Origin: Candidatus Omnitrophota bacterium
GTDB taxonomy: Bacteria; Omnitrophota; Gorgyraeia; Gygaellales; Profunditerraquicolaceae
Length of the DNA: 64,000 nt
NCBI GenBank assembly: GCA_041309145.1
Contig: JBFZAG010000079.1
Location: forward strand, 15 to 64,014
Direction of reading: 5' to 3'
The notes below the pieces were generated by a model, which searched no databases, was not told the origin of the DNA, and was given only the letters and a program-made list of their open reading frames with translations. Made by a program: the position numbers and the translations under genes. Below, one piece after another: positions 60,937-64,000 of the stretch (position 1 is its first letter; each line of letters begins with the position of its first letter).

Positions 60937-62175
60937 TCACCACAATTGGGCAAACAGCCTCTGCATCACCAGGCTGGCCGCCCCCAAAGCGACGGCGTTT
61001 TCCCTAAGCTGGGAATAAACGATCTTGAGATCTTCGGTCTCTTCCCGGAAAGACCATTCTCTTACCGTAGAGCTGACCTTGTTCAGAAAATTCTCGCCGG
61101 CCTCTTCTAAGCCGCCGCCGAGAACTACCATTTCGGGGTTCAGCAGATTAACCATGTGCGCGATCTTTATCCCCAGCCTTTTGGCCGCGCTGTCCAAAGC
61201 TGACAGGACCACCGGGTCTCCGGTGCGGCTGGCGATGAGCACGCTTTTAAAATCCACATTCTCCATATTCGAAGAGGTCAGTTTGAAAAATTTCGCGGCC
61301 GCTTCTTTGTCCTGAGAAAGCCTGGATTTGACTTCGTCTAAGATCCCCAGATCCATTTCCCAGCGTTTCAGAAAACAGCCGTTAGCCGCTTCGCAATTAA
61401 AAGTTTCCTGCTCTTTATAATTGTAAATAGCTACTTCTCCGGCGTACCCCTGGGAGCCCCGGTAGATCTGGCCGTTGATCAGCAGGCCGCAGCCTACGCC
61501 GGAAAACATATAAATGAGGTTCCGGATCCCGGATTCAATTCCCAGCCAGTATTCCCCGAAGCAGGCGCTGGTTGCGTCGTTTTCGATCAAGGTCGGAACG
61601 TTGAATTCCCTTTCGATCAGACTCTTTAAGGGAAGATCAACCGAAGCGTAAGTATAATAGTGGTCCATTTTCTGCGGCCAGTGGATGGAGCCGTCCTGCT
61701 TGTTGACCAGCCCGGCGATCCCCACCCCCACGCCCTTGATATTGGCGGTGTAATCTTTAGACCGGCGGAATATCTCGCGGATGATCTGAAGGAGGGCTTC
61801 GGTAATGTCTTTTACCGAAGGCTTCTGCGGCTTGGCGATCTGGGTCTTGGTGATGATGTTGCCTTTTAGATCGACCAGCAGCCCGACCATATTCATCAGG
61901 TTAAGCCCTACTCCTATAATATAGCCTCCCTGGGGGTTGAGATCCAGCAGGACCGGCCTTCTGCCGCCTTCGGAAATATCCAGCTCTTTTTCAAAAACCA
62001 GGTTGTGCTTGATAAAATCGTCGATGTAGTTGGAGATGGTCACGACGTTTATCCCGATCTCTTTGGAGATTTCCGGACGGCTGATGGGGCCGCGTTTCCT
62101 GAGGAGTTCGAGGATGTCGATATTACGTCTTTCTTTTTCGGAGAGATTGTCGCTCTGAAAATCAATGGGGTGCAT
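60937..62175 (-). CDS. ROK-family regulator/sugar kinase (NagC/XylR-like, N-terminal wHTH)
   Basis: 412 aa. wHTH (ILELLRKRGPISRPEISKEIGINVVTISNYI), ROK glycine motifs (GVGLNL, GVGVGIAGLV) and the Cys-rich zinc motif region (..CFGEYW..). Confidence 0.7.
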   Translation of the reverse strand: MHPIDFQSDNLSEKERRNIDILELLRKRGPISRPEISKEIGINVVTISNYIDDFIKHNLVFEKELDISEGGRRPVLLDLNPQGGYIIGVGLNLMNMVGLLVDLKGNIITKTQIAKPQKPSVKDITEALLQIIREIFRRSKDYTANIKGVGVGIAGLVNKQDGSIHWPQKMDHYYTYASVDLPLKSLIEREFNVPTLIENDATSACFGEYWLGIESGIRNLIYMFSGVGCGLLINGQIYRGSQGYAGEVAIYNYKEQETFNCEAANGCFLKRWEMDLGILDEVKSRLSQDKEAAAKFFKLTSSNMENVDFKSVLIASRTGDPVVLSALDSAAKRLGIKIAHMVNLLNPEMVVLGGGLEEAGENFLNKVSSTVREWSFREETEDLKIVYSQLRENAVALGAASLVMQRLFAQLW

Positions 62176-62357
62176 GGAATTTACCTTTCTTTACAGCAAT
62201 GGTGGGAATATTTTCTGGACGCTATGGTTAATTATATAAGTGGCATCATTATAAGTCAAGTTTTTTTAATAATTAATAGCCCTTAGATGATGCGATGAAG
62301 CGGTTTAAGTCAAAAAACAAAGACAGGCCCGGAAAAACCCGCCTCCGTTCTTCCAAA

Positions 62358-62385
62358 TTGACTTAAGGTTGACTATTAAATAAAA
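62358..62385 (+). promoter_or_regulatory. near-consensus sigma70 promoter for tRNA-Thr
   Basis: TTGACT (62358-62363), 16-bp spacer, TATAAT (62380-62385), about 20 bp upstream of the tRNA 5' end. Confidence 0.55.
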
Positions 62386-62405
62386 GTTGTTATAATGTTT
62401 TAAAT

Positions 62406-62478
62406 GCCGGCGTAGCTCAGTTGGTAGAGCAGCGCTTTCGTAAAGCGCGGGCCGGGGGTTCGATTCCTCTCGCCGGCT
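62406..62478 (+). tRNA. tRNA-Thr (anticodon CGU)
   Basis: Hand-folded. Acceptor gccggcg/cgccggc, D-arm gctc-agttggta-gagc, anticodon stem gcgct/agcgc with loop ttCGTaa, T-arm ggggg-ttcgatt-cctct, discriminator t. Closely resembles E. coli tRNA-Thr(CGU). CCA is not encoded. Confidence 0.85.
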
Positions 62479-62483
62479 TTTAA

Positions 62484-62850
62484 ATTATCGCACTTCCTTC
62501 CCCGGACCGAAAGGGGTGCGGGGAAAGAAATTTCCCCGCGTATTCGGGGTAACAGCGACAAGCGAAGCGCGGAGCGCCATAGGGGCAGAGCCCCTTTGGG
62601 AACGGGCCGGAGGGTTCGATTCCTCTCGCCGGCTTTTAAATTCTTATGCTTTTGACCCGGCCCAAGGGGGAGTTTGAGGGGGAAAATCTCCCCCTCAACG
62701 AGACACTTCCCGGTTACGCTACGGGGTGACAGCGAACAAAGTGAGCTTCAGAGGGGCAATAAGCCCCTATGAAGCGCGAGCGTAAGCGAGCGCGGCCGGA
62801 GGGTTCGATTCCCTGCCTGACGGCAGGCAGGCTCTCGCCGGCTTTTAAAT
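62484..62850 (+). repeat. two tandem homologous units (about 157 and 210 bp), each ending in a copy of the tRNA-Thr 3' end (T-arm plus 3' acceptor strand plus ttttaaa)
   Basis: ccggagggttcgattcctctcgccggcttttaaa recurs at 62611-62644, and again at 62797-62850 with a hairpin cctgcctgacggcagg inserted into the T-arm. Both units share an upstream core (cggggtRacagcgaaca..agcg..ggggca..gcccct) and contain GNRA-type and other stable hairpins. Neither unit has a 5' acceptor strand (no gccggcg). Confidence 0.6.
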
Positions 62851-62886
62851 AAAGCTTTTGATAACAGCGGCTTTTATTTCTTGCCT

Positions 62887-64000
62887 ATGTCTAAATTCAC
62901 TGAAATATTCAAAAACCGCGACTTCTTCCTGCTTTGGATCGGCCAGATCATCTCCCAGTTAGGCGACCGGCTTGACCAGATGGCCTTGATCGCTCTGGTC
63001 TATTCCAAAGCCCCGGGATCGACGATGAGCATAGCCAAGATCCTTTCCTTTACCATTATCCCGGTTTTCCTGATCGGTCCGGTTGCCGGAGTCTATGTTG
63101 ACCGATGGGACAGGCGCAGGATCATGTATATCTCCGATTTTTTGCGGGCAGCGCTGGTTTTATGCATAGCTGTGTCCTTCATTAATAAAAGCCTGGGTTG
63201 GGTGTACCTGATCATTTTCATAATTTTCTCTATCGGCCGTTTTTTTGTTCCGGCCAAAATGGCCATTATTCCTGATCTGGTCGAGCAAAAACACCTGTTA
63301 ATGGCTAATTCCCTGGTCAATACCACCGGGATGATCGCCGCGGTCCTTGGATTCGGAATAAGCGGGATCGTAGTCGAAAAACTCGGGGCAAAAGCCGGCT
63401 TTTATCTTGATTCCTTAAGCTTTCTGGTCTCAGGCTCCTGCATCTTTTTTATCGCCAAGAAAGCCATGAGCCTGACCAGCCTTAAGAAGGTCAGCCGGGA
63501 GGCCGTAGAAGTCCTGCGCAAATCCGTGCTTGAAGACATTAAAGACGGCTTGCTTTATTTTTTCAAAGAGAAAAAACTGCGCTTTACCGCAGGGGTGATC
63601 TTCGCTTTGTGGGCGGCTTTAGGAGCAGTTTACGTGGTGGTCATAGTTTTTATCCAGCAAACCCTGCATTCCGCAACTAAGGACCTGGGGCTGCTGATCA
63701 TGTTCTTGGGGCTGGGTCTTTTCATAGGCTCTTTGATCTACGGAAAATTCGGCCAACGGGTTTCCCACTACAAAATTATCTTTGTCTGCCTCATCCTGAG
63801 TGGTATAATGCTGGTTGTTTTCGCTTTCGGGATCAACTATTACCCTTGTTTTGCGGTAGCGGCTGCTCTGTCGTTTTTACTGGGAACGGTGATCTCCCCG
63901 ATCATGATCGCAACCAACACCATCATCCACAAAGTAAGCGCAAACCACATGATGGGAAAGACTTTCAGCTCTCTGGAAATCGTGATCCATCTGGGATTCA
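62887..64000 (+). CDS. MFS-family transporter (3' end beyond window edge)
   Basis: Absent from the track because it is edge-truncated. ATG at 62887, then MSKFTEIFKNRDFFLLWIGQIISQLGDRL and multiple TM helices. The DRWDRRR loop motif is typical of MFS transporters. Confidence 0.65.
   Translation, partial: MSKFTEIFKNRDFFLLWIGQIISQLGDRLDQMALIALVYSKAPGSTMSIAKILSFTIIPVFLIGPVAGVYVDRWDRRRIMYISDFLRAALVLCIAVSFINKSLGWVYLIIFIIFSIGRFFVPAKMAIIPDLVEQKHLLMANSLVNTTGMIAAVLGFGISGIVVEKLGAKAGFYLDSLSFLVSGSCIFFIAKKAMSLTSLKKVSREAVEVLRKSVLEDIKDGLLYFFKEKKLRFTAGVIFALWAALGAVYVVVIVFIQQTLHSATKDLGLLIMFLGLGLFIGSLIYGKFGQRVSHYKIIFVCLILSGIMLVVFAFGINYYPCFAVAAALSFLLGTVISPIMIATNTIIHKVSANHMMGKTFSSLEIVIHLGF

Follow-up and report, generated by a model that had tools for sequence, protein, structure and literature searches.

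The tRNA-Thr(CGU) locus and its two units

We analysed a 64,000-nt stretch of a Candidatus Omnitrophota genome (GenBank assembly GCA_041309145.1, contig JBFZAG010000079.1, positions 15 to 64,014 of the forward strand), referred to below as the window, and focused on a tRNA-Thr(CGU) gene near its end and on the two tandem non-coding units that directly follow it. The tRNA gene (62406–62478, + strand) is canonical and has no encoded CCA; it was called both by ARAGORN, as tRNA-Thr(cgt), and by Rfam (65.6 bits). The two units, which we named unit 2 (62487–62642) and unit 3 (62643–62851), lie on the same strand, contain no open reading frames (ORFs) and each end in a copy of the tRNA T-arm and 3' acceptor strand followed by TTTTAAAT. 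Our comparisons show that they are members, one of each of two subtypes, of an undescribed family of small structured non-coding elements. Related loci that were compared with the window are labelled with L-numbers (L005, L064 and so on).

The boundaries of the units are set by a 38-nt block, GGGCCGGGGGTTCGATTCCTCTCGCCGGCTTTTAAATT, that occurs at 62449–62486, at 62605–62642 (92% identical) and at 62814–62851, with spacings of 156 and 209 nt. The recurring segment corresponds to the final 30 nt of tRNA-Thr plus the trailer TTTTAAATT. Repeat copy 1 (62449–62486, +) extends from the variable loop of the tRNA through its T-arm and 3' acceptor strand to the discriminator, and includes this trailer. 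The 29-nt core of the repeat, GGTTCGATTCCTCTCGCCGGCTTTTAAAT, has two exact occurrences where none is expected (100 shuffles). No further copies of the repeat core or of the unit motif were identified elsewhere within the 64-kb window.

Unit 2 is a type-1 member and is composed of a spacer, an antisense segment, a core and repeat copy 2. The antisense segment, CCTTCCCCGGACC (62496–62508), was read from the sequence. Apart from a single bulged A it is complementary to GGGCCGGAGGG, with which copy 2 begins (62604–62614), and it is equally complementary to the variable loop and T-stem 5' strand of tRNA-Thr itself. The core includes helix H_B, GCGGGGAAA-gaaa-TTTCCCCGC (62518–62539), in which six pairs carry double (compensatory) changes across the family, followed by the invariant joining strand CGGGGUAACAGCGA (62545–62558) with its GUAA (GNRA-like) turn. 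The variable helix H_C, GCGA-caagcgaagcgcg-GAGCG (62555–62576), has tandem G.A pairs at its base and is supported by pairs 54-84, 55-83 and 58-80, with 29 double changes at the last of these. Helix H_D, CCAUAGGGGC-aga-GCCCCUUUGG (62577–62599), contains an internal U.U that covaries with the R of the GURA turn. Repeat copy 2 (62604–62642), a 39-nt repeat extending 8 nt beyond the tRNA end, closes unit 2 on its 3' side and at the same time bounds unit 3 on its 5' side.

Unit 3 is a type-2b member in which the spacer, antisense segment and core are followed by a copy with an inserted hairpin. Its antisense segment, GACCCGGCCC (62654–62663), is paired with GGCCGG(A)G, the opening bases of copy 3 (62794–62801). 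Helix H_B, TTGAGGGGGA-aaatc-TCCCCCTCAA (62674–62698), occupies the same place as its counterpart in unit 2, and the arms of these two G/C hairpins differ in a compensating fashion. The invariant strand is represented by CGGGGUGACAGCGA (62722–62735), a GUGA variant, which is partnered with the CAGAG/CUAUG variant of H_D (UUCAGAGGGGC-aauaa-GCCCCUAUGAA, 62747–62773) as the family rule given below predicts. The core of this unit also carries an additional 23-nt segment and helix H_E, GCGCGA-GC-GUAA-GC-GAGCGC (62774–62793), with tandem G.A pairs and a GNRA loop; the GAGCGA...GAGCGAC motif of the H_E region is found family-wide. Repeat copy 3 (62794–62851) consists of GGCCGGAGGGTTCGATTCC, the 18-nt hairpin CTGCCTGacggCAGGCAG (62813–62830) and CTCTCGCCGGCTTTTAAAT, with the hairpin splitting the copy between ...GGTTCGATTCC and CTCTCGCCGGCT, immediately past the T-loop, where the T-stem 3' strand begins. 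Unit 3 could be aligned with L022, L055, L064 and L048, of which L022 and L055 are the nearest among the loci compared.

The two units share CGGGGTRACAGCGA (62545–62558 and 62722–62735) and AGGGGC-loop-GCCCCT, and both are matched by our covariance model of the core, R1 (unit 2: 62506–62610, 93.3 bits, E ~2e-17; unit 3: 62660–62783, 43.4 bits, E ~1e-6). Copies 2 and 3 both have an A in place of a G of the tRNA in the T-stem 5' strand. Because this A is bulged in the helix formed with the antisense segment, yet would break a T-stem, the copy is part of the fold of the element itself and is no tRNA mimic.

A promoter-like site, TTGACT-16 nt-(TG)TATAAT, is located at 62369–62396 (+), with its end 10 nt 5' of the tRNA; it has 11 of 12 consensus matches and is strong and sigma-70-like. 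The TATAATGTTTT...GCCGGCG arrangement at this promoter is also present in the orthologous loci L064 and L179. Downstream, a gene for a major facilitator superfamily (MFS) transporter (62887–64000, +; PF07690, 3.9e-29) begins 36 nt past copy 3 and runs off the window. The order tRNA-Thr(CGU), unit(s), MFS gene is conserved in the window, in L196 (1041–1480) and in L179 (2428–2900), and given this order and the 36-nt gap between copy 3 and the MFS start codon, a transcript initiated at 62369–62396 must cross the units. The promoter-like site is likely the start of such a transcript, covering the tRNA, the units and probably the MFS gene. The window units would be transcribed from the tRNA promoter as part of a tRNA–units–MFS transcript and would act as RNA. 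There is no space for a separate MFS promoter, which suggests a tRNA–mRNA co-transcript with the units as the mRNA 5' region. The upstream flank of the tRNA locus contains a ROK-family regulator gene (60937–62175), upstream of which lies a divergent promoter-like site, TTGACT-17-TATAAT, again with 11 of 12 matches (62231–62259, -).

A first-pass annotation of this stretch, made from the sequence alone, had described a canonical tRNA-Thr(CGU) followed by two homologous tandem units that reuse the tRNA 3' end, with a hairpin inserted in the third copy. The agreement of ARAGORN and Rfam on 62406–62478, the periods of 156 and 209 nt with the motifs common to both units, and the hairpin at 62813–62830 bear out this description. 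The annotation was also right that the units are not ordinary tRNA genes, since neither program calls them. It had assigned a GAAA-loop hairpin, gcggggaaa-gaaa-tttccccgc, to each unit, which we found in unit 2 only (62518–62539). The strong consensus promoter that it proposed does exist as a consensus-like site, located at 62369–62396 and not at 62358–62385.

A covarying core closed by a helix that follows the tRNA

The 5' part of the core reads AAAGGGG, helix H_B (GYGGGG/CCCCRC), CUUU and the invariant CGGGGURACAGCGA; the 3' part is composed of H_C, flanked by GCGA and GAGCG, then H_D (CCAKAGGGGC-loop-GCCCCUWUGG), GGAGCGA, the optional H_E and GAGCGAC. The joining strands (AAAGGGG, CGGGGURACAGCGA, GAGCG, GGAGCGA and GAGCGAC) are near-invariant and purine-rich, and CGGGGURACAGCGA is unchanged but for the R in 52 of 52 sequences. 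In alignment A2 of these cores, 94% of cells are paired and ten pairs show double changes. Compensated cells number 97, as compared with 37 in shuffled alignments (0 of 500 shuffles reach 97), and slid controls collapse. A clean C-G to G-C swap was observed in H_C of L196. U.G pairs are present at the base of H_B, and such G.U pairs identify the tRNA strand as the functional one.

The R of the GURA turn also varies together with the internal pair of H_D: an A goes with U.U in 31 cases and a G with G.A or U-A in 18, with three exceptions. Because the GUAA and GUGA states both occur at orthologous tRNA-Lys loci, switching between them must have been repeated. This covariation between the GNRA-like loop and the H_D internal loop looks like the trace of a putative tertiary contact of the tetraloop-receptor type.

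Other pairings and folds were considered and rejected. Pairing of the H_B C-run with the CGGGG strand was proposed by RNAalifold alone; it gives A.C mismatches, whereas Y-R covariation backs H_B. No covariation was seen that would make AAAGGGG a partner of either CCCCUUU or the CUUU linker. Mappings by eye onto a group I intron, a hairpin ribozyme and a fold like that of hepatitis delta virus did not fit, and the Rfam models gave no match.

The core is enclosed by sequences that depend on the neighbouring gene. The 10–20 nt that precede AAAGGGG are complementary to the start of the tRNA copy, as in GCGAACCC/GGGTTCG (L039), CCCGACCCG/CGGGTCGGG (L011) and GGGATTTGAAC/GTTCAAATCCC (L048). The duplex energy between antisense segment and copy averages -17.2 kcal/mol for cognate and -13.8 kcal/mol for non-cognate combinations (p=4e-9), and pairing of the antisense segment with the upstream tRNA averages -18.8 kcal/mol. 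At orthologous tRNA-Lys loci the T-stem reads cgcg, cgtg or cgag in different metagenome-assembled genomes (MAGs), and both the copy and the antisense segment follow. These observations show that the antisense segment and the tRNA copy form a closing helix which tracks the tRNA sequence.

Size and distribution of the family

A strict motif scan (CGGGGTRACAGCGA-N10-40-AGGGGC) of one genome per species, covering 185,579 species, returned at least 119 loci. Among the matches listed, about half were from Candidatus Omnitrophota MAGs; the whole unit architecture was present in the Omnitrophota matches and also in several Planctomycetota MAGs, in one MAG of the Planctomycetota–Verrucomicrobiota–Chlamydiota (PVC) group, and in Acidobacteriota, Methylomirabilia, Rokubacteria and FCPU426 MAGs, while the remaining matches, in GC-rich genomes, are chance occurrences. 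At E<1e-4 the covariance model R1, built from the 52 cores of alignment A2, identified at least 73 copies distributed over 68 loci. Both window units are among them, and over the 64-kb window it gave no match besides these two. The searches show that the family belongs mainly to Candidatus Omnitrophota, with some members in Planctomycetota and a few in other phyla.

Unit periods across the family range from ~145 to 260 nt. Two subtypes were distinguished: type 1, which is common and includes unit 2, and type 2, which has an extra segment of ~23 nt before the invariant strand and includes unit 3. A third core variant is present in L087 and L196. In L196 (650–890) this type-3 core, UGGGGGAGAACAGCG ... 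AGCGUUAGAAGGGGGC..GCCCCCUCCUAAGGAACGA, forms the leader of a tRNA-Thr(CGU) gene and has its own TTGTCA-17-TATAAT promoter; in L087 the same variant lies 3' of the 5S rRNA gene. Two to four differing loci are occupied per MAG in several MAGs, and decayed relatives were recognised in L022, L057 and L077.

The family is absent from the collections that we consulted. Rfam 15 cmscan was applied to the whole window with gathering thresholds and to 62300–62900 at E<=10, and the tRNA was the sole real match; the best non-tRNA match reached 18.7 bits against a threshold of 70, and none of the 4227 families fits the window units. In the units, the tRNA model RF00005 found nothing even at E<=10, the only call being 62406–62478. 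ARAGORN identified neither a transfer-messenger RNA (tmRNA) nor a permuted tmRNA, and the best Rfam tmRNA fragment scored 9.8 bits against a threshold of 84. In IMG/VR the unit motif had 0 strict and 40 loose matches, none of which scored as family members apart from one at a chance level of 24 bits, and blastn of unit 2 against phage and plasmid records gave no match. No description of this family was found in the searchable literature.

The tRNA copy and the genes around it

A typical member has an A/T-rich short spacer, the antisense segment, a core of ~100 nt and a near-exact copy of the final ~25 nt of the adjoining tRNA, comprising its T-arm, 3' acceptor strand and discriminator. Among the matches listed, 46 of 61 strict-motif copies have a same-strand tRNA directly upstream, and most of the others lie at contig edges. 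Taken together with the R1 matches, these tRNAs are of at least 19 anticodon types, namely four for Arg, two each for Lys, Thr, Gln and Gly, plus others for Met, Trp, Asp, Leu, Glu, Val, Tyr and Ala. The terminal 12–30 nt of the upstream tRNA are repeated exactly after the core. In a repeat-boundary analysis of 47–48 units with an upstream tRNA, the repeat had a median length of 28.5 nt, and its median starting point lay 24 nt short of the tRNA end, where the T-stem begins; it ended within +/-1 nt of the tRNA end, that is, at the discriminator, in 20 of 48 units. The target duplications measure 17–49 nt. Identity between tRNA and copy (47 loci) is 97–100% over the final ~13 positions and 87–100% over the rest of the T-arm. 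An A-to-N pattern of the kind made by diversity-generating retroelements was not seen in the comparison of copy with tRNA.

A large subgroup carries a hairpin inside the T-loop of the copy (GGTTC-UAG-hairpin-CG-GAGTCC), which turns the closing helix into a three-way junction; this site is a few bases 5' of the one at which the third copy of the window is interrupted. The mini-palindrome CTGCCTGCC-loop-GGCAGGCAG was observed as an insertion in the window (62813–62830) and in L091, L095, L073, L064 and L072. Its position varies: it is found in the variable hairpins, at or next to the T-loop of the copy, and also free-standing nearby, and it looks like a small hairpin repeat that spreads independently in these genomes. 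A second repeat of ~90 nt with inverted ends, CAGAGCAATTGAGCAAT...GCTCAATTGCGGTCTA, lies just after units in two MAGs (L007; L072, 4482–4570) and interrupts a unit in L040 (6296–6380).

Intact cores that lack a tRNA copy also exist. They are situated as leaders abutting a tRNA 5' end or a ribosome-binding site (RBS) in L030, L094, L057 and L077, and further such leader cores are the second copy in L179 and the type-3 core in L196. In these copy-less leader cores a local hairpin substitutes for the closing helix. The L057 and L077 cores lie directly 5' of an RBS and start codon, and the genes concerned encode small proteins, an HU/IHF-type DNA-binding protein (PF00216, 2.4e-30) and a 77-residue protein with no Pfam match; the upstream partner of their closing helix, GGTTCTTTC...GAAAGAACC, resembles a decayed T-arm. 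In some MAGs (L084, L049, L196, L100 and L051), AUAGCGAAGUGAC or AGCGAACGAC directly precedes several tRNA genes. These sequences correspond to the GAGCGA..GCGAC motif that ends the unit core before the tRNA copy, and the motif abuts position +1 of a complete tRNA in L094, L179 (13747–13924), L084 and L049. An RNase P-type reading of such 'GCGAC|tRNA' junctions was rejected, as they were seen at only 4 of 114 tRNAs and are not general.

Signs of movement and of constraint

Several observations are suggestive of movement, among them the many tRNA types that the family uses. In L114 (4226–4424) and L087 (3029–3500), a unit occupies the 23S–5S spacer antisense to the rRNA operon and is bounded by a direct repeat of 37–38 nt that reads as the 5S 5' end in reverse complement. 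A second, divergent unit of L087 lies 3' of the 5S gene, in the orientation of that gene, and carries a copy of the 5S 3' end. From units at both ends of 5S it follows that the units point away from the end of the gene, whatever the direction of transcription. At the tRNA-Thr(CGU)–MFS locus, L196 and L179 each have a single type-1 unit, L064 has a single type-2 unit and the window has one of each. Of the tRNA-Thr(UGU) loci that lie downstream of one and the same gene, that of L101 is occupied and that of L039 is empty. Two identical units stand in tandem in L005. In one MAG, cores that are 91% identical lie behind tRNA-Asp and tRNA-Thr with the closing helix perfectly re-matched at each. Core identity within and between MAGs was mostly equal, and evidence of recent bursts was confined to L044/L085, L048/L064 and the L005 tandem. 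As a side observation, L011 and L078, very close relatives, are collinear through tRNA-Thr and the unit and diverge fully a few bases past the copy, so that the outer edge of the copy coincides with a rearrangement breakpoint.

The units are also embedded among syntenic housekeeping genes. In 8–9 MAGs the order is frr/pyrH/tsf/rpsB, tRNA-Lys, unit, tRNA-Leu and a phosphotransferase system (PTS) IIA gene; elsewhere nusG/rplK/rplA follow tRNA-Trp and a unit. At the tRNA-Lys loci the core is 78% identical, as compared with 70% (nucleotide) and 69% (protein) for frr. L073 and L083 are ~98% identical over the tRNA and the 5' half of the core; their peripheral hairpins are swapped and their flanks are unalignable. 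Clustering of the ORFs within +/-3.5 kb of the units (429 ORFs) revealed no recurrent integrase, transposase, recombinase, reverse transcriptase, nuclease or tnpB-like gene.

Interpretation

We tentatively favour a reading of the units as a mobile structured RNA element under constraint, which we consider possible and only somewhat short of probable. We infer a mechanism of spread along the following lines. The element would insert at the outer end of a stable-RNA gene and duplicate its terminal ~25 nt, so that the gene stays intact; new target sequence would thereby join the transcript of the element. Targeting would rely on base pairing, with target-matching segments borne by the element recognising the conserved T-arm, and since the element encodes no protein, catalysis would be supplied in trans. 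Candidate routes are an RNA route (target-primed, in the style of short interspersed nuclear elements (SINEs) or R2), a folded single-stranded DNA (ssDNA) route in the style of CTX phage or attC, and homologous exchange. Tandem units would arise when a second member inserts at a repeat copy or by unequal exchange between copies. Strong constraint would preserve resident copies, whether through a continuing need for the folded RNA in homing or through co-option by the host. The boldest version, that of a protein-less, RNA-structured mobile element of ~150 nt which homes by base pairing to tRNA 3' ends and to both 5S ends, as a programmable, self-retargeting bacterial counterpart of SINEs or R2 or as a ribozyme-driven inserter, we judge to be rather unlikely.

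Several points weigh against mobility. No insertion event was caught: near-identical genome pairs offer no clean contrast of an empty and an occupied site, and no reverse transcriptase or recombinase partner was identified. The units of L044 and L085, the single very recent duplication inside a MAG, have cores that are 99% identical and share the core and the first part of the copy alone; with spacer and antisense segment unshared, this looks like gene conversion between resident units and not like transposition. The mobile-element reading gives no account of how an antisense segment, once moved behind another tRNA, would come to match it. Retention at orthologous housekeeping loci with conservation at the level of tRNA fits a host function equally well as it fits homing, and the intact cores without a copy, as leaders of tRNA or protein genes, suggest that the core has a job independent of mobility. 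Transcription of the units, finally, is deduced from the layout of the sequence.

The chief rival takes the family to be a host-functional module of stable-RNA operons, which is a real possibility though on balance not a likely one. The core would then be a ligand- or protein-binding RNA or a ribozyme, and the antisense segment would toggle between the real T-arm and the decoy copy, and so control or time the way in which the tRNA folds and is processed, or what becomes of the RNA downstream; the module would have spread to many tRNAs long ago and now be inherited vertically. It accounts better than the mobile-element reading for the conservation and for the leader versions: at syntenic orthologous loci the units are conserved at least as well as frr and equally to the tRNA, and the copy-less cores stay intact as leaders. 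Almost every copy has the orientation of its tRNA, many lie inside tRNA operons (Lys–unit–Leu, Met–unit–Val, Thr–unit–Tyr), the antisense segment pairs equally well with the upstream tRNA, and the copy retains 100% identity to the tRNA in its acceptor part, although this part lies outside the closing helix. Tertiary covariation of the kind seen here is typical of riboswitches and ribozymes. However, the units at the 5S 5' end in two MAGs are antisense to the rRNA operon and have intact cores with G.U pairs on their own strand, occupancy differs among related genomes, and tandem copies may be of unlike subtypes. No single cis function suits trailers, leaders, antisense spacers and mRNA 5' untranslated regions together, and with a bulged A or an inserted hairpin so often present in its T-arm part, the copy would be an unfaithful decoy. 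The mobile-element and host-module readings could both be true, if hosts have co-opted the element. By contrast, we regard as improbable a miniature integrative element that moves as folded ssDNA, in the manner of integrative mobile elements exploiting Xer (IMEX) and CTX phage or of integron attC sites. Here the hairpin of antisense segment and copy would mimic a duplex T-arm, a host tyrosine recombinase would exchange one strand and replication would fix the insertion. The closing helix does reproduce the duplex of the target and has a tandem G.A mismatch at its centre, in the T-loop, and the lack of an encoded recombinase, the tandem arrays and the orientation set by the site (the 5S cases) are as this model would have them. 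C(GAA)G and GCGAAGC mini-hairpins, which are unusually stable as DNA, are frequent in the family. Yet the repeat reaches far past the hairpin, to the tRNA end, and the T-loop GTTCRAN is unlike the attC R-box or the dif consensus; no recombinase is linked to the units, we know of no means by which a free circle of 150–200 nt would be replicated or transferred, and the covariation of GNRA loop and receptor and the complex junction are features of RNA.

Three further explanations were considered. Free-standing guide RNAs that serve an RNA-guided protein encoded at another locus (OMEGA/TnpB/Cas12 or bridge-RNA type) would explain a constant scaffold followed by a part that varies with the neighbouring gene: the core would be the scaffold, and the 17–25-nt tRNA-identical 3' tail, with or without the antisense segment, a guide to tRNA genes, of guide-like length and 97–100% identical over the last ~13 positions. 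We consider this quite improbable, as no protein gene recurs within +/-3.5 kb, a guide would match its own locus twice, no omega-RNA of Rfam matches, some cores are tail-less, and the target-matching segments pair with each other instead of being open. The first-pass annotation had offered two readings of its own. One was a literal tRNA-derived small RNA whose 3' end folds as a mimic of the T-arm and acceptor, open to CCA addition, RNase P/Z or EF-Tu. It is true that the copy includes the whole T-arm sequence as well as the 3' acceptor strand and that its end often falls precisely on the discriminator, but it lacks a 5' acceptor strand and draws no ARAGORN or Rfam call, its T-arm part is paired to the antisense segment, the A-for-G change breaks the T-stem in both window copies, and many copies have a hairpin in the T-loop; members associated with 5S carry 5S sequence, and the core is unrelated to tRNA. 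What survives of this reading, which is very improbable as it stands, is a structured RNA family that is probably transcribed from tRNA promoters; the derivation from tRNA does not, since the copy varies with the adjacent gene, nor does the folding of the copy as a tRNA 3' mimic, since it is paired with the antisense segment instead. Its other reading, nested att scars of integrase-bearing islands or prophages with decayed remnants between the repeats, is in our view extremely improbable and already contradicted. Direct repeats of a tRNA 3' part are the classic signature of such events, tandem accretion is known, and the repeats do look like target duplications. The sequence between them, however, is a conserved, covarying core of ~100 nt found at ~70 loci and at many tRNAs; the integrase that such scars call for was found neither near the window units nor recurrently at related loci, phage and plasmid records gave no match, and in viral sequences the att-like core is present only inside phage tRNA genes. 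Covariation of the hairpins in relatives, which the annotation had also raised, was found in the helices of alignment A2. Each of its two readings thus caught one aspect, target duplication or a structured RNA family, and neither was right as stated.

If the units are indeed a constrained mobile structured RNA element, then Omnitrophota and neighbouring phyla harbour widespread, compact, folded non-coding elements with conservation of riboswitch or ribozyme grade that are absent from databases. What defines them is their place at the end of a tRNA or 5S gene, together with the sense and antisense copies of its terminal sequence that they carry. This points to a protein-less, base-pairing-guided insertion of DNA beside conserved genes or to a new layer of control of tRNA maturation, and either outcome would be relevant to RNA biology and to programmable insertion tools. 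The partial tRNA copies are easily misannotated as integration scars or pseudo-tRNAs.

Comparison with known systems

Direct repeats over the 3' part of a tRNA are a signature of tRNA-targeting integrations (PMC9897764). The units resemble tRNA-targeting islands, prophages and integrative and conjugative elements in that a complete tRNA is followed, beyond the insert, by a direct repeat from T-arm to 3' end, and in their tandem accretion. They differ in the insert, which is ~100–170 nt long, has no integrase or ORF and contains a conserved structured core and an antisense copy of the target; moreover, one and the same core is found at at least 19 tRNA types and at 5S rRNA, and it was not found in viral, phage or plasmid collections. 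The 22-nt att-like core occurs in IMG/VR only inside two phage tRNA genes and without integrase context. A phage tRNA-Thr(UGU) with the 3' end of the window tRNA is present in L002 (4300–4476; IMGVR_UViG_3300028920_000032), where it is followed by a long near-perfect hairpin, AATTAGTGGTTTTCCTGCGCAGG ... CCTGCGCAGGAAAACCACTAA, unrelated to the family.

With CTX-phage attP(+), IMEX and integron attC sites the units have in common the lack of a recombinase of their own, a mismatched hairpin that mimics the target, tandem arrays and an orientation set by the site. In contrast to these systems, the target is a T-arm or a 5S end and not dif or attI, and the repeat is far longer than the hairpin; what would be the variable terminal structure is here the most conserved part and resembles a folded RNA. 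An assignment to integron attC was rejected, as the closing helix (...GAGAAC../..GTTCGAG..) shares only AAC/GTT with the R''/R' boxes RYYYAAC/GTTRRRY. Like SINEs and R2, the units are non-coding, are predicted to be co-transcribed with a stable RNA, have target duplications of variable length and carry target-matching sequences. Unlike them, they are bacterial and have neither an A-rich tail nor a 5'-truncated series, and no reverse transcriptase recurs nearby as a partner.

A scaffold of 100–200 nt joined to target-matching segments is also known from the omega and right-end RNAs (reRNAs) of IS200/IS605 TnpB and IscB and from the bridge or seek RNAs of IS110/IS1111. These transposon guide RNAs differ from the units, which have no adjacent transposase or nuclease and no Rfam match and in which the target segments are mutually complementary and the duplication is long. 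Identification as an IS200/IS605-type miniature element or omega RNA was rejected in view of the 17–49-nt target duplication, the absence of a tnpB-like neighbour and the lack of an Rfam match. A classical miniature inverted-repeat transposable element was rejected as well, given that the inverted segments are derived from the target and differ by locus and that the duplication is long and variable.

The T-arm sequence and the 3' acceptor strand recall tmRNA and tRNA-like structures. The units differ from tmRNA in having no 5' acceptor strand, tag frame or ARAGORN call, and in that their verbatim copy of the neighbour is sequestered in a helix. Small ribozymes and riboswitch aptamers differ from the units, which are multi-copy, are accompanied by target duplications and have no match among the 4227 Rfam families. 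Such RNAs nevertheless share with them the size, the multi-helix junction, the invariant joining strands, the variable hairpins, a closing P1 helix and covariation of the tetraloop-receptor type. As far as the tools used here can tell, the family represents a new kind of element.

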